Positions 1-27,144 of a DNA stretch of 27,144 nt are shown here, piece by piece. The translations under genes and the position numbers were made by a program. Numbering within the stretch: the first letter of the stretch is position 1; every line of letters begins with the position of its first letter. The notes under the pieces are model-generated. The model was given only the letters and a program-made list of their open reading frames with translations, made no database searches and had not been told where the DNA came from. Source of the DNA: Macrostomum lignano (taxonomy: Eukaryota); the NCBI GenBank assembly GCA_002269645.1, contig NIVC01002175.1, positions 1-27,144 on the forward strand, written 5' to 3'.

Positions 1-297
1 GAATTCGAGTGCAAAGATCAAGAAACTGCAAAGGCGTGAAGCAAGTCAGTAGTAAGCAGCAAATTTCGCATGCGAACTATGTCGACGCGTTTCGAGTCCA
101 AGCAAGAGCAGATGGTTGCCATGACAGCGATTGTTTCCAAGAAACACGAAATCTTCACGTCGGTCATGGAGAAAAGAAGCCTATCGGTGTGGGAGGATAA
201 GCGAGTGTGGCTTAGCAGTAATCGAAGCCTGCCCTACGGACACTATGCGCTGACGCCCGCATCCCACGATCAGCTGAAGCGCATCCGACTGGTCTAG
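1..297 (+). CDS. Protein-primed family B DNA polymerase (pPolB), C-terminal fragment, frameshifted near 87-89
   Basis: ORF 9..200 gives KGVKQVSSKQQISHANYVDAF. ORF 70..297 gives SKKHEIFTSVMEKRSLSVWEDKRVWLSSNRSLPYGHY. Joined, they match the Polinton pPolB C-terminal pattern KGV..., S..H.i.t, K.sLs..dDKR, PYGHY. Confidence 0.85.
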
Positions 298-871
298 TGC
301 GGGTGTTTAACAGACTGTTTAGTACTTTTTCTTGCTTTTAGAGTTGTTTAAATTGCCAAATTCTGTTTTAAATGTAGTGACTTGCATGTAGTAACTTTTA
401 CAAATTTGTATGCTTGGCTAATTGCGCTAGATTTAGCTGTCAATTTGTTTTTGCGGCGTGAAATATTGATATCAATTTAAGTTTTACTTTTTATAAAGCT
501 GTGGCAAGTGCGCTCATACAATATTAATTCATTTTTGTTTGCTTTGTGTACTACTTGTTTAAAATGTGTTTTTGGTTTTTATCTGACATAAATTGTTCCT
601 GTAAATTCAATCAGCGTTTTAATCATATTTTCTCTATCACTTTTCTATTTCTCTTCTCTCGGTGCACATCGTTTGTTATAACGATGGTAGTATTGTTTAC
701 TTTCGGATTTGATATGCGTTTTGCGATACTTTTGGTGATGGGCTAAATACGTTTTTGAAGTGTTCCATAGCTGTCTGCCTGGGAAAATGAATGTAAAGAA
801 TACTAAGTTTATCCTTTTATTCACTTTTCACTAATCATTGAAATATTTGCGGCAAATTGCTTGACTTGACT

Positions 872-883
872 TTTATTTTTATT
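872..883 (-). promoter_or_regulatory. Tandem AATAAA polyadenylation signals overlapping the TBP-like stop codon
   Basis: Minus strand reads GAA TAA AAATAAA; AATAAA at 878-883 and 872-877. Confidence 0.55.
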
Positions 884-1449
884 CAATGGAAAGAACTACA
901 TTGAGTAGACGCATGCTATCGGTATGCAACTGATTCAAGGACCGAGCTCCACTGAGAACAAAAGAGCCGCTGTGAAAAAGCAGACATTTACAAAAGTTTA
1001 AATTGAAAATTAAAGCAGAAAAGGATTCTGGTTCATATTCGGCGTTTGGGATAATTGATTTTAACATTAATAAGGAAAGTGCGGAATGAACTGGGAGCTG
1101 TCCATGAGCAGTAATAGTTTTAATTCGAACACAAATTGTTTGATGAGGCAGCAGTTGAGCCGGCACTCTCCGATGCAGCATAGCCACGAAGCGACGGGCA
1201 GCCCTTTTGGCGTCTGCGTGGGTCTTGGCACCGCAGATGCTCAGTTGCCCAGTAGGGTAGAGTAGCAGAGTCACTCTGGGATCGCATCCGCTTGATGAGC
1301 ACCCGGGGCCAGACGGGCCGGTAGATCACATGAGCCATGCTGAGAGCCAGTTCCCGTAGAGGCAGCTGAGCGCCCCTGCCACCATCCAGTCTCAGATCTA
1401 CTCCGCCAACCAGATTGGTCACTCTTAGGGCTGTAGCTGGTGGGCTCAT
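879..1449 (-). CDS. TATA-binding protein (TBP)-like protein, about 190 aa after repairing one frameshift at 1278-1280
   Basis: ATG at 1449: MSPPATALRVTNLVGGVDL...ELALSMAHVIYRPVWPRVLIKRMRS, joined to VTLLLYPTGQLSICGAKTHADAKRAARRF...EYEPESFSALIF...CLLFHSGSFVLSGARS. Both TBP direct repeats are recognisable against LQNIV..., ALIF.SGK.V.TGAK, YEPELFPGLI and LLIF.SGK.VLTGAK. Confidence 0.88.
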
Positions 1450-1967
1450 TTCGATCGTCAACTTCTTCACCAAATCTGCTTCTGCCAACTTTACTGCTCG
1501 TGTGCCACGGACACTGCTCGCTTCTTAAGTTGATGCAGAACTTTGGCTTAAGCCAACTGTAGTGCAGCAACGAATTTCTCACTGCACAGCCAGTATCTGA
1601 ATCTTCAGTCGAGGGTGCTCCCAAATCTTCTAGGTTATAAACCTGTCTTCCAAGCAGCTCAGTCAGAAAAATCGACTTCCTTTCCCCATTTGACCAGATC
1701 GGACCACTGGCAATGCTCAGAATGTCTTCCGCCAGTTCCATGTACGGACGGGTTCCATCATTCCACTTAAACTGGTGCAGACTCTTAGATAGCTGTCTGT
1801 AGTAAACTCGCATGTCAGGTGAGACTCTCTCCCATGGATACGGAGGTGCGTACACATGGTGAGCAATGCGGTAGCTCCCGCTCTGATTTGAACAACTGCC
1901 AACTCCTTCACAACAAATTTTTTGCTTGTGCTGTTGCACGGAATCCTTGGAAGTCAATGTAGTTCAT
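1271..1967 (-). CDS. Polinton-associated DnaQ/DEDD-like fold protein; two frameshifts (1918-1923, 1877-1879); true 3' end uncertain
   Basis: Reconstructed MNYIDFQGF...KFVVKELAVV...HHVYAPPYPW...LHQFKWNDG...NGERKSIFLTELLGRQVYNLEDLGAP...CAVRNSLLHYSW resembles a family recurrent in animal Polintons. The fold call is inference. Confidence 0.55.
1522..1530 (-). promoter_or_regulatory. ACTTAAGAA motif upstream of TBP-like gene (putative late promoter)
   Basis: Exact 9-mer; the first downstream ATG on minus is 1449. Confidence 0.5.
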
Positions 1968-2008
1968 GATGCAGCTTTCCTTCGAAAATTTCGGAGTCAG
2001 TCCACCTT

Positions 2009-2017
2009 CTTATATAC
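2009..2017 (-). promoter_or_regulatory. TATA box GTATATAAG upstream of DnaQ-like gene
   Basis: About 42 nt upstream of ATG 1967; the identical 9-mer occurs at 9003-9011. Confidence 0.55.
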
Positions 2018-2067
2018 TTTTCTGGCAGGCAGTTTCAGCCAGGCTGTGTTGCTCCCGTACCCCTTGA

Positions 2068-2687
2068 CTAGACTCTCCTGTTCTTTCTCCAGTTCACCCC
2101 TCTGCTGGTTGCCATTTTCTTCTTAACTGATTTACCAATAGCGGAAAGCGGAACATTAAGCTTTTTCTGCTGCAGAAAATCGATGAACTCGTTCCACCCA
2201 ACTGGTTCACGCTCACATGGCGAATCCCTCACTGCGTGCTGAATCAAGTCCAGTATGTTTGAGGAAGGGATTGACGTGCCTGCGATTTCCACCTCCCCGT
2301 TTTCACAAACTCGAATCAGCTCTGGATTGGTGGACAGGATCGTCCACAGACTGCGAGCCCTGGTTTTGAATTTCTGTGGCACCGACTTGCTGATCTTCTC
2401 TTCCCAGGTGTTCATCTGGGGTGTCTCTGTTTTCATCAACTTGGCTTCAGTATTCGTGATCCTTCTTTTCCAGCGTGCTTGCGCTTGGCCAGCAAACTTT
2501 GCATTGCACTTTGGTACATGGCGGTTTTCACATCTTCTGGACAATCCTCGGCATACAAGATGTCATCGCATTTCTTCTGAGCCTGCTTCAAGTCAGCTTC
2601 AGTGGTAGTCTCATTTGGCTTCAAATTCTGCATCAACATCTCATACTCTGCTTTAGGAATCAGAACCATTTCTGAAAATTTGTTCAT
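2068..2687 (-). CDS. Conserved Polinton hypothetical protein, frameshift near 2466-2469
   Basis: N-part MNKFSEMVLIPKAEYEML...CDDILYAEDCPEDVKTAMYQ and C-part SVPQKFKTRARSL...GEVEIAGTSIPSSNILDLI...PVGWNEFIDFL...NVPLSAIG. The pattern is typical of a Polinton gene found downstream of the ATPase. Confidence 0.7.
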
Positions 2688-2991
2688 TTTGCTTCTTCTT
2701 CTTTACCAGCTTAAGCAGAATCGGGAGTATTTTGATGAAGCCAGCCTTCAACAAGTCTGTCTTTCTTCTTTTGTGAGTAATTTTTCGAATTATCTCTTTT
2801 GACTTTGCAAGAACAGCTTTTTCATCGAGCGAAAACGATAGATTGTTTTGTAAGAGATTATGGCAGGCCTCGACAAGAAAATAACGCACTTCTTTTGGAC
2901 AATTTTTTATCAACAGCCGCTTGAAGCGCACGGTATATTTAGGTGACGCAAGAACCGCAAAAAAACTTGCATGTGAATCAAGCACTTCCAT
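2653..2991 (-). CDS. Small conserved basic Polinton protein downstream of the ATPase
   Basis: ATG 2991: MEVLDSHASFFAVLA...LVEACHNLLQNNLSFS...LAKSKEIIRKI...GFIKILPILL. Matches the EcxNxL...L.k.k..lR.l pattern and sits at the syntenic position. Confidence 0.68.
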   Translation of the reverse strand: MEVLDSHASFFAVLASPKYTVRFKRLLIKNCPKEVRYFLVEACHNLLQNNLSFSLDEKAVLAKSKEIIRKITHKRRKTDLLKAGFIKILPILLKLVKKKKQNEQIFRNGSDS

Positions 2992-3712
2992 AGCGATGAA
3001 AACAATAGCTGATAAAAACAAGCTTCACTTTCACTTTCAAATACAAGATGGGGTCGCTGGTTGGGCAAAATTCTGGCCCGCACTCGCAGCTCATCGGGAG
3101 TTGATGGGTGAAAATCCAGGAACAGGTAAGCTCCCCTGCCCTGCGCGGTCACGTGCTTGAACACTGACAGCAGAAAGCCGGGCTTCTCTGTAAAGCACTG
3201 CCTGCCCAGTGCTGCAATCTGCAGCTGGTCTCTGGGGTTTTTCAAGATAGCTAAATACATTACATTCAAGCTCATTGTTCGCGACTCTTTTCCCTTGAAA
3301 AATATATTCTGAGTCAGCATCACCAAAAGCACGGCAAGTGATGTGCGATTCCTGTGAAAAAATTTCGCATTGAAGCAGAGTTTGAAGTTTCCTCTATTAA
3401 GTCATCGAAAACAACCAGGTCATTGGGCCTAAGTGCTGCCTCGATGTTGGTGGGAAATCCCTGGCGCAGCTGCACACCTAGGCTGCTCAGTTCTGCATGG
3501 CCTGCCTGTGAGATCCCATAGTACCACAGAACTCTGCCAGGCTTCACATCAAACATGACGTCTCTGTACTGGATCAGGTGTTTGACAAAGGTTGTTTTTC
3601 CTGCATTGGTGGGCCCGCAGAAAATCATGCAGCTTCCCTGCCTGAGGCGGATATCGTAGCAAACTTGCTTTTCTCCCATGTTTAATGCATAAATATTAGA
3701 AATCACGGACAT
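2910..3712 (-). CDS. FtsK/HerA-superfamily genome packaging ATPase, frameshift at 3325-3328
   Basis: Walker A GPTNAGKT, Walker B LVVFDD, then LTQNIFFKGKESRTMSLN and KNPRDQLQI...LGRQ, and YLFLDFHPSTPDELRVR. Confidence 0.93.
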
Positions 3713-3716
3713 CTTT

Positions 3717-3725
3717 TTCTTAAGT
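3717..3725 (-). promoter_or_regulatory. ACTTAAGAA motif upstream of ATPase
   Basis: Minus strand reads ACTTAAGAAAAAGATG; ATG at 3712, second Met at 3679. Confidence 0.5.
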
Positions 3726-3755
3726 TGGCTTCAAACCTCTGTAAGATTCTATCAT

Positions 3756-4214
3756 TCAAATGATTTTTTCATTAGCATGCAAATGCTTCAAAATCCCCTC
3801 AAATGACCGATTGAACAGAAACTTTTGATAAGCAAAATAGATGCAAAACACTCCGCATTTATTAGAGTTAGCACATTGAACTCTGTTTATATTGCTTCGG
3901 AGCCAAAAGCCAGTTGTTTTAATCTCTCGAAACAAATTATAAACCAAAGATAAAATTTCAGGTTCCCAGCCGAGGGAGTTGAACAACTCAATGCGATTTC
4001 CTTGCCCAACATAGCACACCACCCAGTGACCAAATGAGCCATTGTGCTGAAGTAGGACAAAAACAAACTTGTTTTCAAAGGAAATTGATGATCTAAATTT
4101 TCTTTTTACATTCAAGGGCAGAGAATTTTTATAGCGCAAATGTAAAGTAACTATGAGAAATTTTTGGTAAGGCAAAAATTTTCTGGCGAGATTAAGTAGT
4201 TGAATTGCATCCAT
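3756..4214 (-). CDS. Adenain-like cysteine protease (capsid maturation)
   Basis: GHW (His), ELFNSLG, and Q..NSNKCGVFC (oxyanion Gln and catalytic Cys); immediately downstream of the major capsid gene. Confidence 0.9.
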   Translation of the reverse strand: MDAIQLLNLARKFLPYQKFLIVTLHLRYKNSLPLNVKRKFRSSISFENKFVFVLLQHNGSFGHWVVCYVGQGNRIELFNSLGWEPEILSLVYNLFREIKTTGFWLRSNINRVQCANSNKCGVFCIYFAYQKFLFNRSFEGILKHLHANEKII

Positions 4215-4219
4215 GTCAA

Positions 4220-5503
4220 TTAAGATGAATAGTCCAGCAAAAGCTCTCGGTGCTTGGTGACCTCAATCAGCGAGTCATACAGGCACATAGCAATCAGGGA
4301 CACCGCTTCATTCAGAGCCTGTTGGAAGCGAATCTCCAGCCGCAGGTTGCCCTCCTTCTGTCCGTACCACAGAGCCGCTCCCTCGGGTGTGAGATCGAAT
4401 GCAAACACCGTGCTGTTGTTGGAGAAGAGCTGGTAGGGGATCCACGGAACCGAGTTTGTGTGGCTTGCAGATTGACAGCTTTTCAGGTAGTGCAAGTATT
4501 CTCTTACAAAGGAATTGTTTTCAGGTGTGAAGGCGCCGTGGCACACGGTTTCCCCACCTTTCTTTAGAGCCAATCGGCTAAGGTTGAAGCTCTGGAACTG
4601 GAACGGGCTCGCGTGATGATGACCGTTGAATGCTCGGTGGCTCACGAAGGCCAGCATGATAAACTTCGGCAATTTTCCATGAGTGAATCCTTCAATGTTT
4701 TTTGACTGAATACCCTGGGGTAGGATGAAGTTCTGCATTTCAGTTCGCTCGATGGGATACAGTGCATTTTGGTTTGTCAACCCCTGCTCGTGGGCCAGGC
4801 TGATGTGGGGCATCACTTTGACTCGGCGAAGATGCAGAATGCTGTGAGAGATTTCCATTCGGTATGCCGCGTTGTTTGCATTCGGGGTTCTGATGGCAAA
4901 GGCCCCATCGCTGGGGACCAGTTTGATGTGCAGGTGCAGATTGCTTAGCAGAAACACTGGGCACTGGAAAACATCGCTGAAGAGCGGCCCCGCATACTCC
5001 ATCCATTGGGATTCCCTGTGGCTCTCCGTGTGCTCTTCAGCTGCCGAGTTCGGCTCCAGGAAGCCAGCAGGGTAAAGTTTTAGTTGCTGGGCATCGGATG
5101 AGCTCATTAGTGCTTTGAAGTACGCATGGTAGGGATAGAGCTGGTCTCCACCAGACACCACTCGCTGGTTAATGCTCACAATTACATCTGAGAAGGCTGT
5201 AGACAGAACAAAATTTTCTGGGTGCACGTCACTGTCTCTGCGCTCGGTGATGATGCCATCTCCATCTCGAACATCCTCCCTCAGCAAACCCCCATCCAGT
5301 CTCACAAGGCGGCAGCGAATATAAAGAAAAGAATTCAGCAGATCTGTGTATTCATCGGCAGATTGGTGGCAGTCAAATTCAATGGGAGAGTTTGCAACAA
5401 TGGAATTAACTGGGTGAATATCAACATAAGTAGCTTTTTCAATGCAGGTTTGTAGAACGGGCGTCTTAAATAAATCAAGTCTGGGATTGAATCCGTAAGC
5501 CAT
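4220..5503 (-). CDS. Major capsid protein (double jelly-roll, Polinton PY/hexon-like), intact 427 aa
   Basis: N-terminal LDLFKTPVLQT...PIEFD...YTDLLNSFLYIRCRL..DG and C-terminal GNLRLEIRFQQAL...IEVTKHR; size and gene context fit. Confidence 0.92.
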   Translation of the reverse strand: MAYGFNPRLDLFKTPVLQTCIEKATYVDIHPVNSIVANSPIEFDCHQSADEYTDLLNSFLYIRCRLVRLDGGLLREDVRDGDGIITERRDSDVHPENFVLSTAFSDVIVSINQRVVSGGDQLYPYHAYFKALMSSSDAQQLKLYPAGFLEPNSAAEEHTESHRESQWMEYAGPLFSDVFQCPVFLLSNLHLHIKLVPSDGAFAIRTPNANNAAYRMEISHSILHLRRVKVMPHISLAHEQGLTNQNALYPIERTEMQNFILPQGIQSKNIEGFTHGKLPKFIMLAFVSHRAFNGHHHASPFQFQSFNLSRLALKKGGETVCHGAFTPENNSFVREYLHYLKSCQSASHTNSVPWIPYQLFSNNSTVFAFDLTPEGAALWYGQKEGNLRLEIRFQQALNEAVSLIAMCLYDSLIEVTKHRELLLDYSS

Positions 5504-5505
5504 GT

Positions 5506-5883
5506 CTATGACAGAGAGTCGAGCACGCGTTTCACAGTTTTCTTGCTGACTTTTCGCTTTCGCTTTCCTCCGCCTGCTCTATTCTTCTTTGCTTTCGTCT
5601 TCCTATTCTTAAGCTTTTTCCCACTAGCCTTGCTCGACCTCTTACTGCGATTTCCACCAGTTGCCTTTCGGGTGCCCTTCTTTTTCTTCAATCGTTTCGG
5701 ACTTGCTTCAGTATTTCTTTTGCGCCTGACGTTGCTAAGCGTCGAGGCTGATGATGATGATATAGCCGCTGGCGGAGGCTGGTATGTCATGATCCCTGGG
5801 AAGCTCCCACAGCCATAGAGTGCAGGCTTTTCGTGTCCTGTCCTCACCCCCGAATATTGCTGGATTAGCTGCTGGTAGTTCAT
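5506..5883 (-). CDS. Small Lys/Arg-rich protein, putative genome-condensing core protein (125 aa)
   Basis: ATG 5883 overlaps the minor capsid stop (ATGA). The C-terminal half is KRLKKKKGTRK...KKLKNRKTKAKK...KRKRKVSKK. Lies between the two capsid genes. Confidence 0.68.
   Translation of the reverse strand: MNYQQLIQQYSGVRTGHEKPALYGCGSFPGIMTYQPPPAAISSSSASTLSNVRRKRNTEASPKRLKKKKGTRKATGGNRSKRSSKASGKKLKNRKTKAKKNRAGGGKRKRKVSKKTVKRVLDSLS
5606..5614 (-). promoter_or_regulatory. GCTTAAGAA motif upstream of major capsid gene
   Basis: One mismatch to ACTTAAGAA; the first downstream ATG on minus is 5503. Confidence 0.42.
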
Positions 5884-6689
5884 TGAATGCGTTTCTCCTG
5901 AATTTGAACTGTAAGCAGAACAGGGCTGTGAGTCTGTGCAATCAGTGGGCAACCATAGATGTCACGGAGCTGAACTCGAATGCTGTGAAGAAGACTGATT
6001 CGTTGAATCGGGAAGAATATTGTTTTCTTAAATATTTTTGTTTGATAGTTGCCCCATTCAATGCCGGCTTTCATTCCAACTGTTCTCAACAAGGAGCTCC
6101 AGTTGCAATTAGTTGACTCAACGATACTGCAGTGCACATTGATTAAGCTGGTGCGCGGGCAGCCAATGCAATGCTCGGACACGCGGCTCCCTGGCTGGAT
6201 TTTCACAGCCTGGTTTCCAAATCCCAGCCAATGCAGAATTTTACTAGATGGAAGAAACAGCTCTGCTCTCGCAGTGTTGTTGTGCACCACAGTTCGTGAG
6301 TTGTGGATTTCGAACTTCATACCGAATTCCCTGTTGCCACTACGCCCCATCAGGCCGGACTCATCAGCCTCCATCTCAGACTCCCTGTCACTCATTGCAT
6401 CAAAGAACAGCGAATCAGAGTTGGCCAGCAGCTCATTCAGGCGCTCCACCAGCTCCTCCACTCTAGCAAAGCGTCCGGGTTGAAGAACCAGGGCCTCATG
6501 CTCTCTTCCATCTGAGACAGTGAAGCAGTAAGGCTCGTCAACATTGAACCATGCAGCAGGCAGATGGATTTCAGCCAGACCTGCCTCATAGTCCACATTT
6601 CGATCCAAGTAAATAGGTGAAGGCAGGTAAAAATTAAAGTCACTAGGAGTACCTTCAGCATGCTCACTGTTAATCAAAATAGTTCGCAT
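5880..6689 (-). CDS. Minor capsid protein (penton-like, Polinton PX)
   Basis: ATG 6689: MRTILINSEHAEGTPSDFNFYLPSPIYL...YEAGLAEIHLPAAWFN and C-terminal SIRVQLRDIYG. This is the typical Polinton penton pattern F...LP..i.L...evgL.EI..P..w.N. Confidence 0.85.
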   Translation of the reverse strand: MRTILINSEHAEGTPSDFNFYLPSPIYLDRNVDYEAGLAEIHLPAAWFNVDEPYCFTVSDGREHEALVLQPGRFARVEELVERLNELLANSDSLFFDAMSDRESEMEADESGLMGRSGNREFGMKFEIHNSRTVVHNNTARAELFLPSSKILHWLGFGNQAVKIQPGSRVSEHCIGCPRTSLINVHCSIVESTNCNWSSLLRTVGMKAGIEWGNYQTKIFKKTIFFPIQRISLLHSIRVQLRDIYGCPLIAQTHSPVLLTVQIQEKRIQ

Positions 6690-6726
6690 TATAATGATAA
6701 ACTTCAAGATGAGGGATGTGCCAAAG

Positions 6727-7797
6727 CTAAACCTTTCTTAAGTCTTTTTCATCCACCCAGCCAGTCGAGTCGTAGCCCGCTCATTTCACCAGATAGCGAA
6801 TTTTTCCCTTCCGCTTCTCCGTTTTCAGGATCTTCTCAATCACATACAGCCGCTGTGAGTCCGGGACAGCCTGCAGCTCGTGCTCATGGAAGAGTCCTCG
6901 AATCTCTTGCCCCCGCATGTCTTTAATCTTGTACATGTAGGGATAATGTTTTGGGGCTCTGCTCACCACGGTGTACACTTCCTCACTCCAGCTCGCTTTG
7001 TATCCCTTTTTGAATAGCCGTGGAGCATTGGAAATTCTCACTGACTGGTTTTCAGCGAATTTAGGCTTCCTTAATTTTTCTAGAGTCTCGACTGCTTTTC
7101 CGTCGTACAGGTTCATCCACACTTCAGATTCATTATCTTTGCAGACACTAGTGGGTGCCATTTTGATGCTTCTGTGGTAGGTATTGTTGTAGGATTTTAC
7201 CAGCTTAGGCAGCACATCAAGCCAGTGCAGTGTGCTCTTGTAGGTGAAGTAGCGCCACATTCTACTTTTCAGAGTCCGATTCCATCGCTCAATGACAGCC
7301 GCCTTCTGCTCGCTGTTAGTTGGGAAAGCCAGAATCCCTCTGTCAATGCAGTATTGACGGAAAGTGGAGTTGATAAATTCCTTCCCCTGATCTGTGCGAA
7401 CTGTGCGCGGCTGTCGCTTTGAACTTCTCAGTATGCTCTCGAATGCTGACTTCACTTCTGCAGCAGATTTATTTTTCAGTGCCTTGGCCCAAGCACATTT
7501 TGAGAGCACGTCAATGCATGTGAGAATATATTTGTAGCCTTTATTATGCTTTGCAAATGGAATCATTTCCACTAAGTCAAGTTCCCACTGATCATCGATT
7601 GCGCGCACTATGATTGGGGCCCTTGGATATCGCCTCCTAGCTGGCTTGTGCAGAGTGTGCACTGGCTGCTCGCTGAGCCACTGCTCAATGCTCTTTGCAG
7701 ATATTCGATCACCTCTTTGCCTCACTTCATGCAGCAACTTTGAGGCACAAGAAAAACTAGCCGGTTGCTCAGGTTTCAAATAAATTTTCTCCATCAT
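6727..7797 (-). CDS. Retroviral-type (c-INT) DDE integrase with C-terminal chromodomain interrupted by an in-frame TGA at 6781-6783
   Basis: WELDLVEM (D), RTDQGKEF (D), AAVIERWNRTLK (E). Chromodomain YVIEKIL...YLVK*AGYDSTGWVDEKDL continues in frame to TAG at 6727-6729. Confidence 0.96.
6735..6743 (-). promoter_or_regulatory. ACTTAAGAA motif upstream of minor capsid gene
   Basis: Exact 9-mer; the first downstream ATG on minus is 6689. Confidence 0.5.
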
Positions 7798-7849
7798 GGG
7801 TTTATCAAGATACGTGCCTATCCACCTGCTCTAGCTGTACAGTATTTTT

Positions 7850-7858
7850 TTCTTAAGT
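7850..7858 (-). promoter_or_regulatory. ACTTAAGAA motif upstream of integrase
   Basis: Exact 9-mer in intergenic DNA; the first downstream ATG on minus is 7797. Confidence 0.55.
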
Positions 7859-7906
7859 AGAAATTTATATTCCAATTAAATGATAGAGAAACGAGTGGCA
7901 AATTAA

Positions 7907-7912
7907 TTTATT
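7907..7912 (-). promoter_or_regulatory. AATAAA polyadenylation signal for the PC4-like gene
   Basis: About 210 nt past the stop at 8125, in an AT-rich spacer and just before the integrase motif. Confidence 0.35.
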
Positions 7913-8124
7913 ACTGTCAGATTGAAACCTCTAACATCGTAACAGTCGGTGTATTTTCCGAAAGCAAACAATCCATAAAAACGAACACTAAAACACTCGC
8001 ACACCAGCATTTCAGAAATAGCAGAGATAAAAAACAGCATAGTGCCGTCAGATATAGGCTGGATAATCATGTGCAAGCTAAAAGTAATTTAGTTAGTCCA
8101 ATGCATTCAAAGCATTCTAGCTGT

Positions 8125-8898
8125 TCAGTTATCAAAGCGAACATTGGGCAGCCTCATCGCGTCCTGCCGACGAAGTTGAAATGGCAGCTTTCGCTTCCTG
8201 CTGCTGCTGCTCACCGTCGAAGCCGCTGCATGCGCCCTGAACTGATACCACACCGGATCTTCCTCAAGGTTGGTGTCCCGCTGCGGAAGCAGTCCAGCAT
8301 CAGAATCAACCAAAGGTATCGGTGTGGATGTGATAGGCTCAGTCACAATGCGCGGCCTTGTGGGCGAGCTAACGTCCTCGTCATCAGCATGCTCTCCGCC
8401 CTCATCAGTCTCCATTATGGGCTTCGTGTCCTGGTCAGCCTCCAACTTGAGCTTCTTGTCCTCTTCCTCCTCTTCCTCATCAGACTCCAGCTCGTACTGC
8501 ATTGAGTTCCTCAAGGGAGCCACCAGCTGACCGTCGATCCAGGAGGCGATTTTCCAGAGCTTCTGCCACAGCGGCGGAGTCAGTGGTACGGCGTTTCGTC
8601 TCAAAAACTCCTCGCAGCAATCTTCCGGCAGCCGTTTGAGCCAAATGATGCCGCCTTTGACTTCCACAAACTTATCGAAGCCGAGTTTCACGACCTTGGG
8701 CTCGTTGTTGCGTGCAGAAATCACAAGTGAGCGTTTCACCTCCTTCAATTTCTTCCATTGGTGAACATTCAGGTTGAATCCTGGGACGCCTGGCTTCAGA
8801 CTTGCCGTGCTGCCGTGTCGGTAAAACTTGCGAATAGCGATAAATTTTTGTCCTTCAAACTCCTGGACTTGTGCCTTATAGCCTTCACAGATGTCCAT
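8125..8898 (-). CDS. PC4/Sub1-like ssDNA-binding protein with two tandem PC4 domains and an acidic tail
   Basis: YKAQVQEFEGQKFIAIRKFY...LKPGVPGFNLNVHQWKKLKE aligns by eye with the PC4 CTD (YVSV.DFKGK..IDIREYW...KPGRKGISL..EQW..LKE). A weaker second copy ends VPLTPPLWQKLWKIASWID. Confidence 0.8.
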   Translation of the reverse strand: MDICEGYKAQVQEFEGQKFIAIRKFYRHGSTASLKPGVPGFNLNVHQWKKLKEVKRSLVISARNNEPKVVKLGFDKFVEVKGGIIWLKRLPEDCCEEFLRRNAVPLTPPLWQKLWKIASWIDGQLVAPLRNSMQYELESDEEEEEEDKKLKLEADQDTKPIMETDEGGEHADDEDVSSPTRPRIVTEPITSTPIPLVDSDAGLLPQRDTNLEEDPVWYQFRAHAAASTVSSSSRKRKLPFQLRRQDAMRLPNVRFDN

Positions 8899-9002
8899 TT
8901 TCCTTTCGCAATTGAAAACTCACAAAAGTTAAAAGCTGAGGAAAAGTTCGGATGAAATTTTGGATTTGAAAAATTGAGAATTCTTTCTTGTCAGTTTCGG
9001 GG

Positions 9003-9011
9003 CTTATATAC
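9003..9011 (-). promoter_or_regulatory. TATA box GTATATAAG upstream of PC4-like gene
   Basis: An Inr-like TCAATTT lies about 33 nt downstream (A at 8975); ATG at 8898. Confidence 0.55.
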
Positions 9012-9130
9012 CCTCGACCGAACCACCCCAAACCACCCATCCCACTCCGGGCTCTGTGATTGGCTCTTTCGCAAACATTATTTCCAATTACATAGATTAA
9101 CATTCATTCAGCTAAGCTAACCCACTCCAT

Positions 9131-9568
9131 CCTATCTCTGCAGTGTTAACCACCCCCAATGCAAAGAGATAGGCCGCCTCTCCTCCTATCTCTGCAGTGT
9201 TAACCATCTCCAGTGTAAAGAGATAGGCCGCCTCTCCTCCTATCACTCCAGTGTTAAGCAGAGATAGAGCTCATATCTCTGCAGTGCTTAGCCGTCCCCA
9301 ATGCACAGAGATAGAGCTCATATCTCTGCAGTGCTTAGCCGTCCCCAATGCACAGAGATAGAGCTCATATCTCTGCAGTGCTTAGCCGTCCCCAATGCAC
9401 AGAGATAGAGCTCATATCTCTGCAGTGCTTAGCCGTCCCCAATGCACAGAGATAGAGCTCATATCTCTGCAGTGCTTAGCCGTCCCCAATGCACAGAGAT
9501 AGAGCTCATATCTCTGCAGTGCTTGGCCGTCCCCAATGCACAGAGATAGGGCTCATATCTCCGCAGTG
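9131..9568. repeat. Subterminal Polinton tandem array: two approx. 54-bp units, then six full and one partial 47-bp hairpin units
   Basis: Unit CAGAGATAGAGCTCATATCTCTGCAGTGCTTAGCCGTCCCCAATGCA starts at 9259, 9306, 9353, 9400, 9447, 9494 and partially at 9541. Each has an 8-bp stem CAGAGATA/TATCTCTG. Confidence 0.95.
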
Positions 9569-9637
9569 TATTTTTCCCTGTACATTTGCATTGCCGCCTA
9601 TCTCGCCAGTGCTAGTGCGGCAGTATCATAATTCGCC

Positions 9638-9647
9638 CTACTACTCT
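9638..9647 (-). other. Polinton terminus (outer end of terminal inverted repeat)
   Basis: Minus strand reads AGAGTAGTAG. Homology to the TRP paralog stops exactly here. The partner TIR is outside the window. Confidence 0.75.
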
Positions 9648-10318
9648 GGTCCGATGGTCTCAAAGTAGCTCAGGAAGGACACTGACCGGAAGCCCCACAG
9701 CAAGAATGCGGTGCTGAGAACCATCTGGCAGGAATAGGCAGTGGGGTAGGAGATGCCGTGTGAGAAGATGATCCACTTCCAGACCAGACCGATCCACAGG
9801 AATAGAATCGCGGCACAGTCAAACATATTGAGCTGTTCCTTAAAATATCGCGGCAACATAAATGCTTTGCTGCCTTTCAAAAAGTGTCGTTTGCTAGCGC
9901 CCTTGTAAATTTCAAACGATTCTTGCAGCGTAAATGAAGCCAGGTAGAGTGCCATTATCACGTCTGGAATAGCCCAGTCAAAAGTCACCCGGAAATCAAT
10001 CAAGTACCACGCAAAAAACACTAAAAAGGCAATGAATGCAAAGAAGTTTATAGAGTAGTTAGTTTTAGGAGAAAGGCAGTTGTCTTTTGGTGCTTCGTTC
10101 CATTTTTTCTTAAGGAGTCGGTGGATGCACTCAGTTGCAAAAATATCTTTTGAATCGAGCAGCTTGACCATTTCGTAAACGGAGTAGTAATTGACGGTAT
10201 CCTTTTCTGGCTCCACAGCGTTCTTTTCAGTATCCTTTTCGTAGATGGAACGTTGGTTCTCCTTGTACCGGCTCGGAAATTTTGGGCCGAGTACGACTTT
10301 TTTCTCGTCGTCAGACTG

Positions 10319-10474
10319 CTGGCTTTGCGTTTGATCATTGCCATTAGGCTGTTCTTCAGAGTTTGTCTCTTGATCAGCTTTTTTGCTGTCTTGCCGTTTG
10401 GCCAGATTTTTTGCTCTTTTGTTGTCTGACGGCTGGCTTTGCGTTTGATCATTGCCATTAGGCTGTTCTTCAGA
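10319..10474. repeat. 42-bp exact direct repeat, 114-bp period, inside TRP paralog 1
   Basis: Copies at 10319-10360 and 10433-10474, encoding SEEQPNGNDQTQSQ twice. Confidence 0.9.
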
Positions 10475-12804
10475 TTTTTCCTCTTTATAACTGCCAATTT
10501 TTCCGTTTAAATACTTCATTAATAGCTTCTTATCTTTAGCGTTATCGATATTAGCGTACAAGCACTCAAGAGCATTCACTGCAATTTGAAGGAGCTTTGC
10601 TTTAAGTTCCAGCAGTTGATTTTGCGTGGTGGTGTCTTCGCTATTAGCGATTTCCAACCTCAGGTACAATAGCAGGCTTAGTGTCACTGGGATCAACTCA
10701 AACTGCCGTGTCAGAATAAGGTCCGGCAAGATTTTCAGTTTTCTGAGGAACAGAGCGACGTCAACTACCAGCATCTCCGATGATCCGGTCGGTGAATGGA
10801 TCCGAGGGAGCTGCTTGTACTTGGCCAATGAGGTATCTCGTTTCTTTCCTTTTTCTTTTACCTGTTTACTTTCTTCTATCTGTTCTTTTCCGTTGTTGCT
10901 TTTGTGCTGCAAGTAGTCCCAAAGTCGTGCCTCAACTTCTCGAGTAACCCGTTTCAGTCGGAGAGCACATCGGAACATGATTGGCGAATCAAGATCTAAC
11001 GCCTGGAACAAGATACACTCATCCGTGCGTTCATCATCTTCATTGCCTTCCCCAAGCTCAACATTTACGTTTCCAATGAATTTACTCTGCTTGCTATCTT
11101 TGCCTCTGGCAACTTTATCGCGGGATGCTTTGTCCAGCATGGAGAAAAGAAGTTGACGAGCTATAGTTCTGCGCGGCAATTGGAGTCCGTGGTGAACAGG
11201 ATCGATTAGACACAGAATTTCTAACTTAGATTTCTCTTCCTGGCGTTTAAAAGTTTTGTCAACAACTTTCATTCGGCTAATGATTTTGGCGAAGTCGAGA
11301 GCAGTCAGCCCAGAATGCGTAGCAGCGGCGAGGGCCTGCCAATTTCTTCGACGCATAAGCCATTTGATGTTCTCTTCATTGTTGGTCTCGCAGGCGAAGT
11401 GCAGACAGGTGGCACCCTTGAGCGGACCGCTGCTTACTGTAAGCTGCAGCAGGGACTCCGTTGGCGAATCAGACAGTTTGGCCAATAGTGGAGCTACTTT
11501 TTTGAGTTTGTATTTGCTCGCAAACGAATGGATGGCGTGAAAGCCGTTTAATGCCTTTAGAAGCTTTTTTAATTCTCTGCGAAAATCCGCGACGAGGCAT
11601 GTATTGTCTTCCTTTGAGTCTTTCCCCTCATTTCCTACCGAAGCTGCTTTACTCAATATCTTTTCCAAAGTATCTTCTGTTAGGGTCGAAGCGTGTAGGC
11701 AGTTCTGACCGAGGTCATTTTCCTCTGCTATTTCGGTTACTGACGCAATATTCAAAAATACTTCCATAAAATTTTCAGCACGTTTGTCAGGTCCGTCTTG
11801 GCTGTCATCTGCAAGTTTTCCGGTATAGAAGAACAGTGCGTGGAGCAGGGTATTTTTGTCGAAGTCCGTGCACGGCAAAATTTTGAAACCATTTCCTTTG
11901 GGCAGAAGAAGATCAAAATTCCACCCCATGCACGCGTAGAAAAGGCACGATCTGCCATCTCCGTCGAGTGTGCTCTCAGAAATCAGTTCATTGTGCTTTT
12001 TCTTCAAGTGTTTCGTAAATTTCGAGCTTTGAAATGCGAGATGCAACGCGCTTTTGCCATGGTTATTCATGAGAGACCAGTGCTGTCTATCAGTGCAATG
12101 AAATAACTTCCTCGCTGTTTTGTGCTTTTTCTCTTCTTTGTTGAAACTCATTGCAGCCAGAATAAACGCCGTGTTTCCACACTTGTCTCTTTGTTCAATG
12201 TACTTCTTGAAATCGATCTTACCTTCGTTTCCAAGACTTTTCAGCTTTTTATAGATTTTTACTACCGTCTGATCTTTGCAACTTTTACTGTCGATTGCTC
12301 TCTGGAGTAGCGTGAGTCTCTGAGCTTTTTGAACTTTTTGAACTTTTTGAGTTTTTTGAGATTTTTCATTTGTAGTGGCGTATTCGCCTATCAGTGTGGA
12401 GACCATTTCTTTGTCCACTTTGTCAAGAACGGACAACAGTTCGTCCACAATTTTATCATTTTGGTTCTCGTTCTGAACTGCATAATGGCAAAAGTTGTAG
12501 CCATCTTTGTCCTGTGCTTCCAGGCATTCTTTATCGAGATTGCAGGCAGTTTTCAGTAGAAAACTGAGTTCCTTAGGGCTCGCATGCATTGCAGCCAGAT
12601 GCAGCACTGTCTGGTCCTTTTTGTTCTTTAACAAGAGAACTTTTTTTGCACTTTCCGCTTCTGTATCTTCTTTATTATGTGCACTTATTTTCGCAAGAAC
12701 TAACCCAAATAGTGTAGATTGTTCTTCATTTGTTTTATGGTTCGGCATAGGTTTACCTTGCGATTCATTACCGCATTTTTTGCGTTGCCCTTCGTTGGCT
12801 GCTT

Positions 12805-13193
12805 GATTGCTTCTGTCTTCAGGAGTAACAGTACCGCTGCAACAGGAACTCGCGCCGCGAATCCAGCAAACGCAGCGTTCTCCAAAACTTTCTTCCTCGT
12901 CACTTTTCTCGCTCTCACTTTCCTCCTCGTTGTCACTTTCCTTGCTGCTACTTTCCTTGTTGGCACTTTTCTCGTTGTTGGTTATCTGGTTATTAACCTT
13001 CATTGCTGGATTGCTTCTGTCTTCAGAAGAACCAGTACCGCTGCAACAGGAACTCGCGCCGCGAATCCAGCGAGCGCATCGATCTCCAAAACTTTCTTCC
13101 TTGTCACTTTCCTCCTCGCTTTCACTTTCCGTGCTGCTACTTTCCTTGTTGACAGTTTCCTGGTAGTCAATTACCTGGTTTTTAACCTTCATT
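12805..13193. repeat. Approx. 200-bp in-frame tandem duplication inside TRP paralog 1
   Basis: Copies start at 12805 and 13009, encoding KESSS..ES.EE..F.G.RC..WIRGASSCCSGT...EDRSN twice. Confidence 0.9.
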
Positions 13194-15291
13194 TTTTCAC
13201 ATTTCTCTGCGTTTTCTTCGCTGCTGTCTGAGTCGCACGAGTAATCAGTCGAAATATTTTTCTCTTCTGGGCGGTTTAAGTTGACGGCGGCAAAATGGAA
13301 CACGGTATCGCCATCGCAGTTTGTTCTGTAAAAGTATTTGGGTTTCTGCACCATCTTAATAATCTCTTTCAGAGATTCTTTTGAGAAGCAACTCATACAG
13401 TAATGCAGAGGCGTTGTCCGGTGGCTGTCTTTTTTCAGCATGCAGTTTTTTTTATGCTTGAAGTGTTCTATAATTTTTAAAAGCGTCTTTTCGCCCCCTG
13501 GAGTCATTGCGGCGTAGTGCGCTGCAGTTCTCTTGCATCCTTCTTCTGTATCGTCTTTCACCAGTTTTTCGGTCGAAAATTTTTATTTCGCTTTAAGAGA
13601 TTCCGGGCCTTCTGGAATTTTTTTGCTTTTGTAAACTGAAGAAGTTCCAAATATGGGTCTTTTCGGTCTTCTGTGTTTTCTGGGTCTTCAGACTCTTCTG
13701 AGTCTTCTGGGTCTTGAGGGTCTTCTGTGTCTTTTTCTTTGTTTGCAGACATTTGAAAGTCTGAATTCTCAACCGAACATTTTTCCGAATTCAGAGATTG
13801 TTTGCTAGCTGTATTCCTCGCGTCGGGAAGTCCTGGTGGCAGGGTATCCCCGTCGGTCTCGTCACAAGAGCTGCTGTCATAGTAGACCGCGTGCTTTCCT
13901 TGAACACTCACGCTCGACTTCGGCTGCTGCATTATCCAACCAGCTGAGTCGCACTCGCGCTGGGCTGCCGCTTCTGTGATGGGTTTTTGCATTTTATAGT
14001 TTGAGTTTCATTCCTTTTTTTAATTTGTCCCGCAAAATTATTGATCGGATAACCACATAAAAACAGTTGATTGGCTTGAAAGCTTACCCATCAATCTAAG
14101 TTAGTATAGAATTGTCAACAAACAATGTTCAAGATAGTCAAAGCACACGACTTTAAATTGAGTAATAAATCGCTAGTGAATCTACCTAAGATTTACGAAA
14201 TCATCAAAAATAATTAATGAGAAATGAATTCGGAATTACCGGTGTACAGTGTTTACAGTGCAGTTAGAGCTACTTAATCACTTCAGTGTGCTCGTATTTA
14301 CTCTATTACAGCGTAATAAATTTACATTTGAATCCTAATTCTCATGAATATCATTATTTAACCATAAGTTTCCTAATGCCCAAGAATTCTCTGCTTGCTA
14401 CTTATCAGTAGCATACATTGATTATGAATAATTCAGACTCGGTCGACGCTATCAAACCTAACGTAGTAACTATGGCTTGTATCTCATCTACTCCGTATGT
14501 TGTTTGTTCTGTGCTCTTTAGCGACTCATTCATTATTTAAGGTCTGCCGCTCTCCTCTCCTTTTTATTCATCATATTTCACTTCGGCCAGGCAACTAAAA
14601 TGACAACAACTATGCCTGAATCTAGCGAGCCCAACAAATAGCTGCTATAGAGTTGCTGTCACAGTTGCGGCTCTTTGTACGGAACGAATACAACTGATGC
14701 AAAGTGAGCTTATTCTACAGCTACTAAGCGATGCTAAAGAGGTGCAATAGCTACAGCTTGTATGGCGACAGCAATAAGGTTTCAACTAGTCGTATTACTG
14801 TTGTGTTTGTAAAGGCAATAGTGTGATTTCAACCAGTAAAATCTATAGTTCACAGACATCTACATATTTCTCCGACTATCACAGCCTTATTAAATCTTTC
14901 TTATGAAACGAACTGTCTGATCTTTAATCTCTATATTGGAATATTTAATTAATAATTATAAAGAATGAAAGCAAAAATCTCAAGATTGCGCGTATTCATT
15001 AATTAGACAGATGTTCAATTTTTAATAAGCATACAATAAGTTTTACAAGGTATTAAGTTAATACCTTGAATAAGGATCCCTTATTCACTTCTACTTTTGG
15101 TCGGCGTCCTGTGTCTCTTACCTACATTACCTCGAGATGCATTACCTCGCTACTCTCAGCGGAACCCGAACTCTCAATTAATTCGCCTCCAAATTGTAAT
15201 TGTGGACGAAGTCTGCGTTTCACTAATCCTAACTACTCTGTAGAGACACTGATATAGAAACTTTTAAACCTTTTATCTATCCCTTTGTCTA

Positions 15292-16716: not shown

Positions 16717-17512
16717 AATTATGCTATTCTTCTTAATACTAAAACTGGTGCGATGTTTCTTTGTTTGTCTGTTGGTTTGTATGTTGCCTAGACTACTTGC
16801 AACTCAGTAAGTATTTGATAGGTTTTGTAGAGGATTTGGAGACGATTTGGAAGATGAGATTCAAGTCATGAGATTTCAGCTGATGGATTTCAGGTAATGG
16901 AATTCTGGCGGTGGGAGTTCTTCCCCTTTCTCCTCCGTAGGAGGAGTTTCACTCCTCGTATATTTTTCTGTTGGCTTTTGTTTTCTTACTACCTTATTTT
17001 CACGTGCAATTGAATTTAGCTCGTAAATGCTATTTACGAGTATTAAGACTGCGCTTAATTTGAACATCGTTCTAAAAAATTAAGACTTTTTAATACATAA
17101 CGATGATGAAATTCAGCTATTATTGGACAAACTAGGATACCAGAAAATTATTTTATCAATTTGTTTACGTTCTAATTGTTCATCAGTAAATAAGAAAGAA
17201 TTGATGCAAGGAAACAATGACGAATTATTATTTTCTCCACGCTTACAAATTATTTAACATTGAATTTTAGCAATCTAAATGTTCTCTCCAATTAATTTGT
17301 ATTTAAGATTTTAATCGAGAATAATAATTCTAAATATGGGTCGGACAGTTTCGCTGCAAGTCAGCGTTGGGCAGTTGAAAGTTAAATAAGATTTTTTGAG
17401 TAAACCATAGAGAAGCAGCAAACCTTTTATTTGGACACTAAAACAGGAGGCGCCGTAGTCATGCAGAACTTCCAATTCGCGGTAAGATAATCTTCTCCGC
17501 ATAGATACTCTC

Positions 17513-17710
17513 AATAGATAATCTCCTCTGAATAGATAATCTCTTATGAATAGATAATCTTCTCTGAATAGATAATCTTTTATGAATAGATAATCTTCTC
17601 TGAATAGATTATCTCCTCTGAATAGATAATCTCCTCTAAATAGATAATATCCTCTGAATAGATAATCTCCTCTGAAAAGATAATCTCCTCTGAATAGATT
17701 ATCTTCTATG
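17513..17710. repeat. 18-bp minisatellite, 11 copies
   Basis: Consensus AATAGATAATCTCCTCTG in exact 18-bp phase from 17513. Confidence 0.95.
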
Positions 17711-17749
17711 CAGGGGTAAAAATAATTGCTTCTTTCTCCCTATAGACAG

Positions 17750-18150
17750 AGGGATAATCTACTCTCATGGATATGGATAAATCTCCTCTCATGAATATGG
17801 ACAATGTCCTCTCATCGATCTGGATAATCTTCTTTCATATTTAGAGATAATCTCCTCTCATGGGTTGGATAATCTCCTCTCCTAGATTAAGTAATCTACT
17901 CTACATGGATGTGGATAATCTCACATGATCTCAAATGGATTTTCATTCTCATTATTAGTCTCATCCCATGGATATAGATAATCTCAACTCAAAGATATTG
18001 ATAATCTCCTCTTTTAGACATTGACAATCTTCCGTACATCTATATGAACAATCTTCTCTACGTGGATGTGGATAATTTGTTCTACTTAGGTCTCTCTTTG
18101 TACATGGACATTGAAAATCTCCTGTCATGGACGTTAATAATCTTTTCCAC
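17750..18150. repeat. Degenerate approx. 23-bp repeats related to the 18-mer
   Basis: Recurring GGATAATCTCCTCTCATGGATAT-like units. Confidence 0.7.
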
Positions 18151-18161
18151 ATAGATTCGCT

Positions 18162-18647: not shown

Positions 18648-18927
18648 CTGAGTGCATACTTACGTCTTGCAACCGCGAATACATGTAGAAATTAAGTCCA
18701 AGGGAAGGTGGAAGGTGGGAAAAATTCCTAAACGAACAAACCATACATTATATTTTAGGATCAGTGTCGTTAGTACACTGATTTTTTTAACTGCAGGCAC
18801 TCATTTTGGCGTCCAAAAAGCAAACCGATTACTATCTTTGTCCGCCACATATAGCTTTACTGGGAGGACAATATTTCTACTGTCTTTTCCCGTGGTGACT
18901 ACAATAAACAACAACAAACAGACGTAC

Positions 18928-22468: not shown

Positions 22469-22699
22469 ATGGTACTCAGGACAATGCAGTTGTAGGACCA
22501 GCGCAGCCTGCGATTCAAGTGATGTTTTTATTCCGTGAGTAAATCAGAGTGGCTTAGGAATCGCACTTGGTTAAAATGCACGCACAAGGTACATAATCTA
22601 CTGAAACGGTATTTACAAAACTCGTGCTTTCAGTAGCGAACTTTTAAAACATTGGCAGCTAAACTACCGTGGCTTACGCAGAGTAAGGGGCACCACGGT

Positions 22700-26375: not shown

Positions 26376-26584
26376 TCGAAAGCGTCAACCCAAGGCCAAA
26401 ATTATTCTGTTTGACCTAATAAATATTAACATTAACGACGTCATATGTCGGCCGAACGTCGGTGCAATTTAGACCGTTGCCGACGTCGGGTTGCTGTACA
26501 GGTGACTAGTTAGAACTCCTGGTTTTTGAAGACCAGGTGAGTAAAAAGCTGCGCACAGGCCACGCCAGTTTATTTAGTGTGTTT

Positions 26585-26825
26585 GGATGAAGCTGTGAGG
26601 CTGAGTTTGTCTGGATGAAGCTGTGAGGCTGAGTGGGTCTGGGTGAAGCTGTGAAGCTGAGTGGGTCTGGATGAAGCTGCGAAGCTGAGTGGGTCTGGAT
26701 GAAGCTGCGAAGCTGAGTGGGTCTGGATGAAGCTGTGAGGCTGAGTGGGTCTGGATGAAGCTAGATGTGAAGCTGAGTGGGTCTGGATGAAGCTGTAAAG
26801 CTGAGCGGGTCTGGATGCTGTGAGG
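26585..26825. repeat. 28-bp minisatellite, about 8.5 copies
   Basis: Consensus GGATGAAGCTGTGAGGCTGAGTGGGTCT. Confidence 0.95.
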
Positions 26826-27144
26826 ATTTTAAATGAGAAAGTTACTCAAATTTGTCTCCCAATTTTATGCTACCAAGGTAGCTCTTAGGATGGTTAATTT
26901 TTCAAATAAATATAATTTTTTAAACAACATAGCAGTGCCGATTTGAATGACTTTACTTGACTAAGTTTGCTTTTATTTTCATCAAAAGTTCTCGCTTCAC
27001 TCTCGCATTCTTTTCAAAGTCAAAGACAAACACTTGATTAAATCTTGCTGCATCGAGTTATCTGACAGGCAACACCCATACCTCAGCTTTAATTCTTCCA
27101 ATAGGTACATTTATTCTTTCGATTTAAAGTGCTCGATTTGCTGC

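Follow-up and report, generated by a model that had tools for sequence, protein, structure and literature searches.

The 27,144-nucleotide contig NIVC01002175.1 of the flatworm Macrostomum lignano (hereafter, the window) carries, at positions 1-9645, the right arm of a Polinton that encodes its own homolog of the TATA-box-binding protein (TBP) and in which a variant TATA word, YNTAAGAA (the late word), precedes most of the genes for the virus particle. We consider it likely that the element TBP binds this word and starts host RNA polymerase II there; the canonical TATA boxes of the replication genes would be left to host TBP. Because the element has its own TBP and an altered TATA word before most of its particle genes, it likely switches these genes on itself. 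An earlier note on this DNA had proposed such a cascade, with host TBP firing the early genes and the element TBP, together with a PC4-like protein, driving the late ones. Three parts of that proposal have indirect support: a TBP under selection, a conserved promoter-like word upstream of the genes for virion, packaging and integrase proteins, and ordinary TATA boxes upstream of replication genes. The partnership with PC4 is not supported.

As the earlier note had claimed, CTTAAGAA stands on the coding (minus) strand before the genes for TBP (1522-1529; 80 nt before the start, within the exonuclease-like coding sequence; 24/27 copies), the packaging ATPase (3717-3724; 45 nt before the conserved start; 21/21), the major capsid protein, MCP (5606-5613; 110 nt; 17/17, with CTT in 10, CCT in 6 and TTT in 1), the minor capsid protein, mCP (6735-6742; 53 nt; 15/15), and the integrase (7850-7857; 12/14), where the tallies of the word come from related copies of the same family, A1. 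The integrase site, which is intergenic, is the strongest: 6-8 of its 8 bases are common to six lineages despite flanks that are only 22-37% alike. The weakest is the MCP site, located in a lysine-rich coding stretch, with a chance of ~0.19 given the amino acids. The wider pattern YNTAAGAA adds TTTAAGAA at 6025-6032 (minus strand; 149 nt before the basic protein; 16/16 A1 copies), a member of the class missing from the earlier note, and the site at 2007 before the exonuclease-like gene (20/21 A1 copies: TATAAGAA in 12, TTTAAGAA in 7 and CATAAGAA in 1), yielding one sense site per gene for 7 of the 11 genes, 45-149 nt upstream, and no antisense occurrence within the gene block of the window. 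Copies C96 and C130 each have 8 sense sites, with 3 and 1 antisense occurrences, respectively. The PM-position gene has CTTAAGAA upstream in 19/20 A1 copies, the window being the sole miss. The late word does not occur before the protease (0/21), PZ-position (0/20) or PC4 (0/15) genes of A1 copies, before the protease gene of the sister family A2 (0/13), or on the sense strand of the 7.9-kb polymerase arm of copy C100 and the arm of copy C530.

The late-word signal is one of position, strand and conservation, not of total count. All 7 sense sites in the window fall within upstream intervals that make up 17.5% of the block (P 5e-6), as do 8/8 sense sites in subfamily C130 (~17.5% of the block, P 9e-7) and 5 of the 6 in A2. 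A blind k-mer scan ranked TTAAGAA at the top (7/11 genes, corrected 4e-8). The sense sites lie in three different reading frames, and the synonymous-codon chance for the 7 coding sites jointly is 4e-7. A reading of the sites as trans-splice acceptors was dropped: most sites lack a pyrimidine tract, and no common loose end is present at the sites among the rows listed (all but 8). None of the records listed as holding the sequence is registered as RNA; contigs from four RNA runs cover all 30 bins, but carry no start, strand or level and were given no weight for or against.

Canonical boxes precede other genes. The PC4 gene has TATATAAG at 9003-9010 (minus strand), with TATA(T/A)A found 76-112 nt ahead of the gene in six lineages, most of their flanks being unrelated, and the A2 open reading frame (ORF) at the polymerase start has TATAAATA or TATAAACA upstream. 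The earlier note had grouped the PC4 gene with a 'DnaQ-like' gene as a TATA class distinct from all the rest. TATATAAG is indeed present before the latter gene as well, at 2009-2016, but this site is at the same time TATAAGAA, a member of the late-word class, and reads TTTAAGAA in 7/21 copies; since the late word is part of the exonuclease-like promoter, this promoter belongs with the late class and the proposed split fails. The window promoter is a composite, TATATAAGAA (2007-2016, minus strand), that combines the canonical TATA register and the late-word register; the late word precedes the gene in each of the three lineages, and in A1 it overlaps the canonical register (TATATAAGAA, TATTTAAGAA). 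The gene itself (1120-1967, minus strand), for which exonuclease-like is an unconfirmed label, is broken in the window copy, corresponds to an ORF of 283 amino acids (aa) in other copies, overlaps the first 110 TBP codons with its tail, and adjoins TBP in A1, A2 and the metagenome locus L129. It has an IDF(E/Q) start only, with no Pfam, PHROG or PDB match; its Atlas neighbors are unnamed, and Maelstrom (0.88) is a lead only. A transcript from the A1 composite promoter would run through TBP because the poly(A) signal overlaps the TBP stop codon. Self-activation of the TBP gene, also suggested previously, is not general, given that the A2 TBP gene has the canonical TATAAAAG upstream in 19/21 copies.

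Judged by its alignment with A2, the late word is a derivative of the TATA box, because TATAAGAA or TATAAAAG stands at the A2 sites in exactly the same register. This sister family, from the same genome, has the same core gene order as A1, with ~39% identity in both TBP and MCP. At the sites of the late word, A2 has TATAAGAA before the PM-position (19/19), exonuclease-like (21/21) and basic protein (12/15) genes, CATAAGAA before MCP (13/15), CTTAAGAA before mCP (11/12), and CATAAGAG before the ATPase (16/16); the integrase row (TATATACG, 9/18) was not used, its anchor being in the wrong frame. When the exonuclease codons are aligned, the A2 TATAAAAG falls base for base on the A1 CTTAAGAA, and at the PM-position site, the words of both families hold the ATPase stop codon in the identical place.

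Related words were found in more distant families. Family B (MCP 29% identical) has TATAAGC before 5/10 genes (corrected 6e-5). Its TBP-like ORF is far diverged (profile E 0.01, hhalign 58%, Atlas 30/30 TBP at 0.95), with no Pfam match and an Atlas recognition of 1920, below the 2300 mark of that resource; the frame may be spliced, because there is no ATG in its first 46 codons and it is preceded by TTTTCAG. The use of family B as a TBP-less control was dropped once a broader profile had found this ORF. Family B (L102-L103, G000:C4619:71-17522) also carries a dUTPase and a deoxynucleoside kinase. Among 14 metagenome loci (MCP 26-34% identical), 13 were scored, L141 having no usable start; TATAAAC is present in 16/30 upstream intervals of these 13 loci, with 25 sense versus 0 antisense occurrences, and is missing from L139. 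Locus L129 has the order MCP-protease-exonuclease-TBP, as in the window, and L134 has a TBP fragment; the other loci, several of which are near relatives, are too short to judge TBP. Scans of IMG/VR with MCP and TBP found no relative. The AT-rich Polinton families C and E have no TBP match and no significant upstream word. The co-occurrence of word and TBP across families, which the earlier note had offered as a check, was thus examined in part, on one genome plus short contigs: no family has the word yet clearly lacks TBP.

The TBP-like gene reported in the earlier note is confirmed. It occupies 879-1449 on the minus strand and has 190 codons in open copies; the frame of the window copy is broken near 1281. 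The C-terminal half in the window matches Pfam TBP with E 5e-11, and a natural open copy matches over both repeats with E 8e-25. The frame is open for at least 185 aa in 28 of the 30 TBP copies fetched; in the TBP-region survey, 40 of the 147 candidates were scored, 39 of them at 98% or more. An AlphaFold2 model (pLDDT 75.8) has a solved TBP as its best Foldseek match (E 2e-14, TM 0.77), and every chain listed at ranks 1-44 contains TBP; the element protein has the two-repeat saddle fold. Among six subfamily copies, the ratio of nonsynonymous to synonymous substitution rates (dN/dS) is 0.12-0.31 in 15/15 pairs for the N-terminal half and 0.06-0.32 in 11/15 pairs for the C-terminal half, the other 4 being saturated. 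The element TBP is maintained by purifying selection. A profile search of 1.84 billion representatives returned only 5 matches below 1e-30. In two quick trees, the TBPs of A1, A2, P0036 and P0041 formed one clade apart from host TBP and TRF2 (support 95 and 99). Recent capture of host TBP is disfavored, grouping with host TBP being rejected in a 31-row quick tree (approximately unbiased (AU) test, p 0.026); a single origin of all element TBPs is neither rejected nor supported (AU p 0.27), B and L129 lying on long branches.

The exonuclease-like gene overlaps the N-terminal half of TBP in another frame, over 109 codons in A1 and 128 codons in A2 (L112 1524-2405, minus strand). The overlapped exonuclease residues are not conserved (dN/dS above 1), yet the frame stays open (P 0.03 and 0.004).

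Compared with host TBP, and with residues numbered as in the yeast protein, the family A TBPs keep N69, F190, F207 and two stirrup glutamates, and share F99P, A100R, F116Y, Q158K, N159T, V161T/S, V203K and the loss of P191; the single-position exceptions are one degraded copy and P0184. Position 191 is S, T or N and position 203 is K in 12/12 family A TBPs, and both TFIIB-contact glutamates are kept in 11/12 element rows, one degraded copy having K. The canonical set of four intercalating phenylalanines and two central asparagines is incomplete (F99 is P, F116 is Y, N159 is T); judging from these residues, the element TBP is a divergent homolog, not a canonical TBP. In TBP, the 5' half of the box is read by the C-terminal repeat; Pro191 permits only T at position 1, and base 2 is read differently when residues 194, 203 and 205 are changed (PMC1636458). 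P191 and V203, both altered in family A, lie among the residues reading the 5' half of the box, and the family A word is variable at exactly bases 1-2 (CT, TA, TT, CA, CC). The TBPs of B, L129 and L134 retain proline 191, and the words of B and L129 begin with T. This residue-word correspondence fits an altered TBP specificity. A precedent is the yeast altered-specificity mutant TBPm3, together with the rule that Pro191 restricts base 1 to T: changes at V203 and around I194 and L205 alter how base 2 is read (PMC1636458). In the element, residues 191 and 203 of TBP are likewise changed, and bases 1-2 of the word are different. TBPm3 is a laboratory mutant that reads TGTAAA (PMC1636458), whereas the element TBPs form a natural lineage with other substitutions.

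Under the mechanism that we favor, the late word would lie ~30 nt before the start site and would be read poorly by host TBP; the element TBP would bind there and recruit host TFIIB via its two kept glutamates. The first TBP would come from a host-readable promoter, in A2 the gene's own TATAAAAG and in A1 the composite exonuclease promoter upstream. The outcome would be an early-to-late switch.

Several points weigh against this mechanism. The word, the upstream intervals and some of the start codons were picked after inspection of the data; lysine-rich coding ends hold most of the sites, whose chances, taken singly, are 0.02-0.36; the word is not over-represented window-wide (12 versus 9.95 expected, 33/100 shuffles being as high), and a sixth CTTAAGAA, at 10107, lies within host coding sequence. 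The copy tallies are not independent because the copies are related, and copy C529 has the late word immediately before the polymerase ORF. Furthermore, TATAAGAA, TATAAGC and TATAAAC are 1-2 changes from the consensus and may be readable by host TFIID, L140 lacks TATAAAC at 5/5 genes, and the absence of TBP from families C and E carries little weight because the family B TBP is itself barely detectable (E 0.01). On the protein side, the proline loss in A1 and A2 is one evolutionary event, the A2 words are mostly T-first though A2 lacks the proline, and of the four intercalating phenylalanines, one has become proline and another tyrosine. In TRF2, the loss of such intercalating residues abolished TATA binding (PMC10005294), and by analogy, the lost phenylalanine could mean that the element TBP does not bind TATA.

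The alternative that survives best, although we regard it as unlikely, is that the word is a weak TATA-like box for host TFIID or TRF2, with the element TBP doing something else, for instance titrating TFIIB, NC2 or Mot1 so that host transcription is dampened, or boosting all element promoters unspecifically. Among host promoters, TATA-like elements that differ at no more than two bases are frequent (PMC10005294), the A2, B and metagenome words start with TATA, and the combination of an altered N-terminal phenylalanine pair with retained TFIIB glutamates is compatible with such a role. However, CTTAAGAA is three changes away from TATAWAWR and is preserved base for base in unrelated flanks; the replication genes keep canonical boxes, whereas the virion genes drift one way; and all of family A shares the same altered DNA face, with no decay.

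That TBP and PC4 form a joint initiation module, with PC4 as the coactivator, was the full model of the earlier note and appears improbable. The PC4-like gene itself is borne out (8125-8898, minus strand; Pfam PC4 E 5e-8). Its product has a clear PC4 repeat, a second repeat-like unit and an acidic disordered tail, and the best Foldseek matches of its AlphaFold2 model are to the human PC4 core (E 6e-3, root-mean-square deviation 1.5). Both the TBP and PC4 genes are present in A1 and A2, in differing arrangement, a conserved acidic-aromatic helix lies in the PC4 tail together with a basic patch, and human PC4 is a transcription cofactor (PMC7549692). Nevertheless, PC4 and TBP each occur without the other in this genome, and a partnership of the two is not borne out. 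A PC4 homolog (hhalign 97%) was detected in 3/5 stretches of family D, polymerase elements without a TBP match, of which the delimited one is 9 kb long, carries 1181-bp repeats and a polymerase, and gave no match to TBP, capsid or integrase; conversely, there is no PC4 match in 5 family B stretches, 3 of which have the TBP-like gene and which include one element with both ends. The N-terminal serine/lysine-rich region of PC4 is its coactivation and regulatory region; the element protein is devoid of it and begins with the single-stranded DNA (ssDNA)-binding core, at residue 4-10. Moreover, the PC4 homolog of phage T5 acts in replication (PMC7549692). A replication role is the likelier one because PC4 accompanies the polymerase in elements that lack TBP and capsid genes; the PC4-fold protein probably assists the polymerase by binding ssDNA and stands outside the TBP module, and a second role in transcription is possible. 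It has the PC4 core fold and sequence motif in common with human PC4 and the phage T5 homolog (PMC7549692), and differs from them in its two repeat-like units in one chain, its acidic tail and its location beside a protein-primed polymerase. In family D (L081-L082, G000:C173, ~4634-13632), a 6-bp duplication flanks reverse-oriented ends, ACTACT...AGTAGT; the polymerase is split, probably spliced, the PC4-fold gene is the only other gene, and the element is probably mobilized in trans.

We find it quite improbable that the word is a late initiator for the RNA polymerase of a helper virus, in the manner of the promoter sharing between virophages and giant viruses. The baculovirus-type late initiator is TAAG, and the words of A1, A2 and B all contain a TAAG core. 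For Mavericks, activation by a helper has been suggested (PMC8097293). However, TAAG is not preserved, being TAAAC in the metagenome relatives and TAAAA at the A2 TBP site; the assigned gene starts lie at least 35 nt past the word, and at 3/15 sites, ATGs located at +7 to +17 would enter the mRNA. These distances fit TATA geometry better than an initiator, and under the helper scenario the element TBP stays unexplained. Finally, the probability that lysine-rich gene ends and stop codons give rise to the word as a mere side effect is negligible: the chance-level count across the window, the occurrence in host coding sequence and the single-site chances of up to 0.36 would suit it, but the preservation of the intergenic integrase site largely refutes it, and the three reading frames, the joint synonymous chance (4e-7), and the strand and position bias also speak against it.

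The element has the hallmarks of Polintons/Mavericks: its terminal inverted repeats end in AGT/ACT, the sister copies C530, C114 and C84 are flanked by target duplications of 6 bp, and the lineage encodes a protein-primed polymerase B, an rve integrase, a protease and a packaging ATPase. The right terminal inverted repeat (9274-9645) ends in CTACTACT and matches the left end of copy C530 over 372 nt; the length range of the repeat is 340-372 nt. At the opposite side of the window, the 3' end of the protein-primed DNA polymerase gene (1-297, plus strand) was identified by tblastn against the polymerase C-terminus of other copies, the remainder lying beyond the contig start; the polymerase ORF has 1152 aa in copy C100, and PF03175 matches were obtained in the related copies C114 and C754. 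All other genes are on the minus strand. After PC4 come the retroviral-type integrase (6781-7797; Pfam rve E 2e-13), the putative mCP (5880-6689), the basic PW-position protein (5506-5883), the putative MCP (4220-5503), an adenovirus-type maturation protease (3756-4214; Pfam Peptidase_C5 E 1e-4, over the cut-off; no upstream word), the packaging ATPase (2910-3679; a P-loop and only weak Pfam NTPase matches), two small genes, at the PM position (2653-2991; upstream word near 3030-3037 lost in the window copy) and the PZ position (2068-2687; no upstream word), and then the exonuclease-like and TBP-like genes. Besides TBP, three genes are broken in the window copy: the exonuclease-like gene, the ATPase, which is a single ORF of 215-235 aa in other copies and families, and the PZ-position gene, an ORF of 206-240 aa in other copies. 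The Pox_A32 profile had no match anywhere in the genome. The names of the capsid proteins, which in Polintons are double and single jelly-roll proteins, rest on gene order, and for MCP also on size, because MCP has no Pfam, PHROG or PDB sequence match and mCP no family match in the sequence libraries; none of the 28 MCP homologs is named as a capsid protein. The names PZ, PM and PW were likewise assigned via gene order against vertebrate Mavericks, which share the orders int-mcp-pw-Mcp-pro and atp-pm-pz with the window element (PMC8097293).

The Polinton is inserted in a host gene for an ankyrin-repeat, channel-like protein (9641-13992, minus strand): its 1288-aa ORF stops at the element end, whereas the paralogue at 18877-21684 runs past the matching residues. 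The end of the element contains 47-bp tandem repeats (9130-9600), and the host DNA contains minisatellites with units of 18-23 bp, 20 bp and 28 bp (17472-18160, 22677-25410 and 26548-26831). The A1 copies are mosaic, with PC4, the basic protein and the C-terminal half of TBP far more diverged than the adjoining sequence, which suggests recombination between subfamilies. A first exon rich in repeats is possible for the A1 polymerase (L031 8776-9600), where a GTAAGT donor lies near 9172 and sites resembling acceptors lie near 9500. In one A2 copy, the exonuclease-like gene is interrupted by a piece of a long terminal repeat retrotransposon with direct repeats (L063 5880-7460).

The closest analog of the proposed switch, although not a system to which it belongs, is the herpesvirus viral TBP (ORF24 of Kaposi's sarcoma-associated herpesvirus, BcRF1 of Epstein-Barr virus), with its TATTWAA late promoter (PMC12529657). 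Common to both are a viral TBP fold, a more polar DNA face and a short TATA variant before structural genes; herpesviruses also use host polymerase II and canonical promoters for early genes (PMC12529657), as the Polinton probably does. ORF24 is a large protein that acts in a six-member complex, lacks the TFIIB glutamates and binds polymerase II directly, so that the herpesvirus complex bypasses TFIIB, whereas the Polinton TBP is a bare 190-aa core with the glutamates; ORF24 needs all four phenylalanines and the proline, of which the Polinton TBP has lost the proline and one phenylalanine (PMC12529657). General library scans of the element proteins gave no family match to herpesvirus-type pre-initiation partners. 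The Polinton TBP matches cellular and archaeal TBP by sequence, and we infer that its origin was independent of ORF24. The TBP homologs of giant viruses and mirusviruses are likewise divergent viral TBPs, and about half of the Atlas clusters nearest to the family B TBP-like protein are viral; mirusviruses, however, encode their own RNA polymerase (PMC10132985), and the Polinton element shows none.

Polintons/Mavericks and adintoviruses (~12-17 kb) have the same ends, repeats, polymerase, integrase, protease, ATPase and gene order as the window element (PMC8097293, PMC8502044). For vertebrate Mavericks, no TBP or promoter word is given in the parts of these papers covered, and their supplements may list more; TBP appears as a single gene label in the Figure 5 legend on MELD viruses (PMC8502044). 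No Polinton TBP-promoter system was described in the literature searched, which left subscription journals and supplements outside. The feature is real and represents a variation on a known strategy, with a mechanism that is probable; the window contributes a base-for-base link between the word and a canonical TATA box, a correspondence between TBP residues and words, and the finding that PC4 is separate from TBP.

The finding addresses the question of how integrated Polintons hold their capsid genes off and then turn them on, for which helper viruses have been proposed so far. A self-encoded TBP with a private word amounts to one protein and one 8-base site, directly testable in a laboratory flatworm whose genome holds numerous, near-identical copies. 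We put forward, tentatively, a broader scenario in which a clade of animal Polintons may switch from early to late genes autonomously. Its one minimal viral TBP would have co-evolved with lineage-specific TATA variants (CTTAAGAA, TATAAGAA, TATAAGC, TATAAAC) and would use host TFIIB and no helper virus, making this a second, much simpler late strategy of the herpesvirus type. If this is true, the clade holds a natural series of orthogonal TBP-promoter pairs, and a comparison of TBP faces and words across these lineages would serve as a natural experiment in the reading of the TATA box by TBP.

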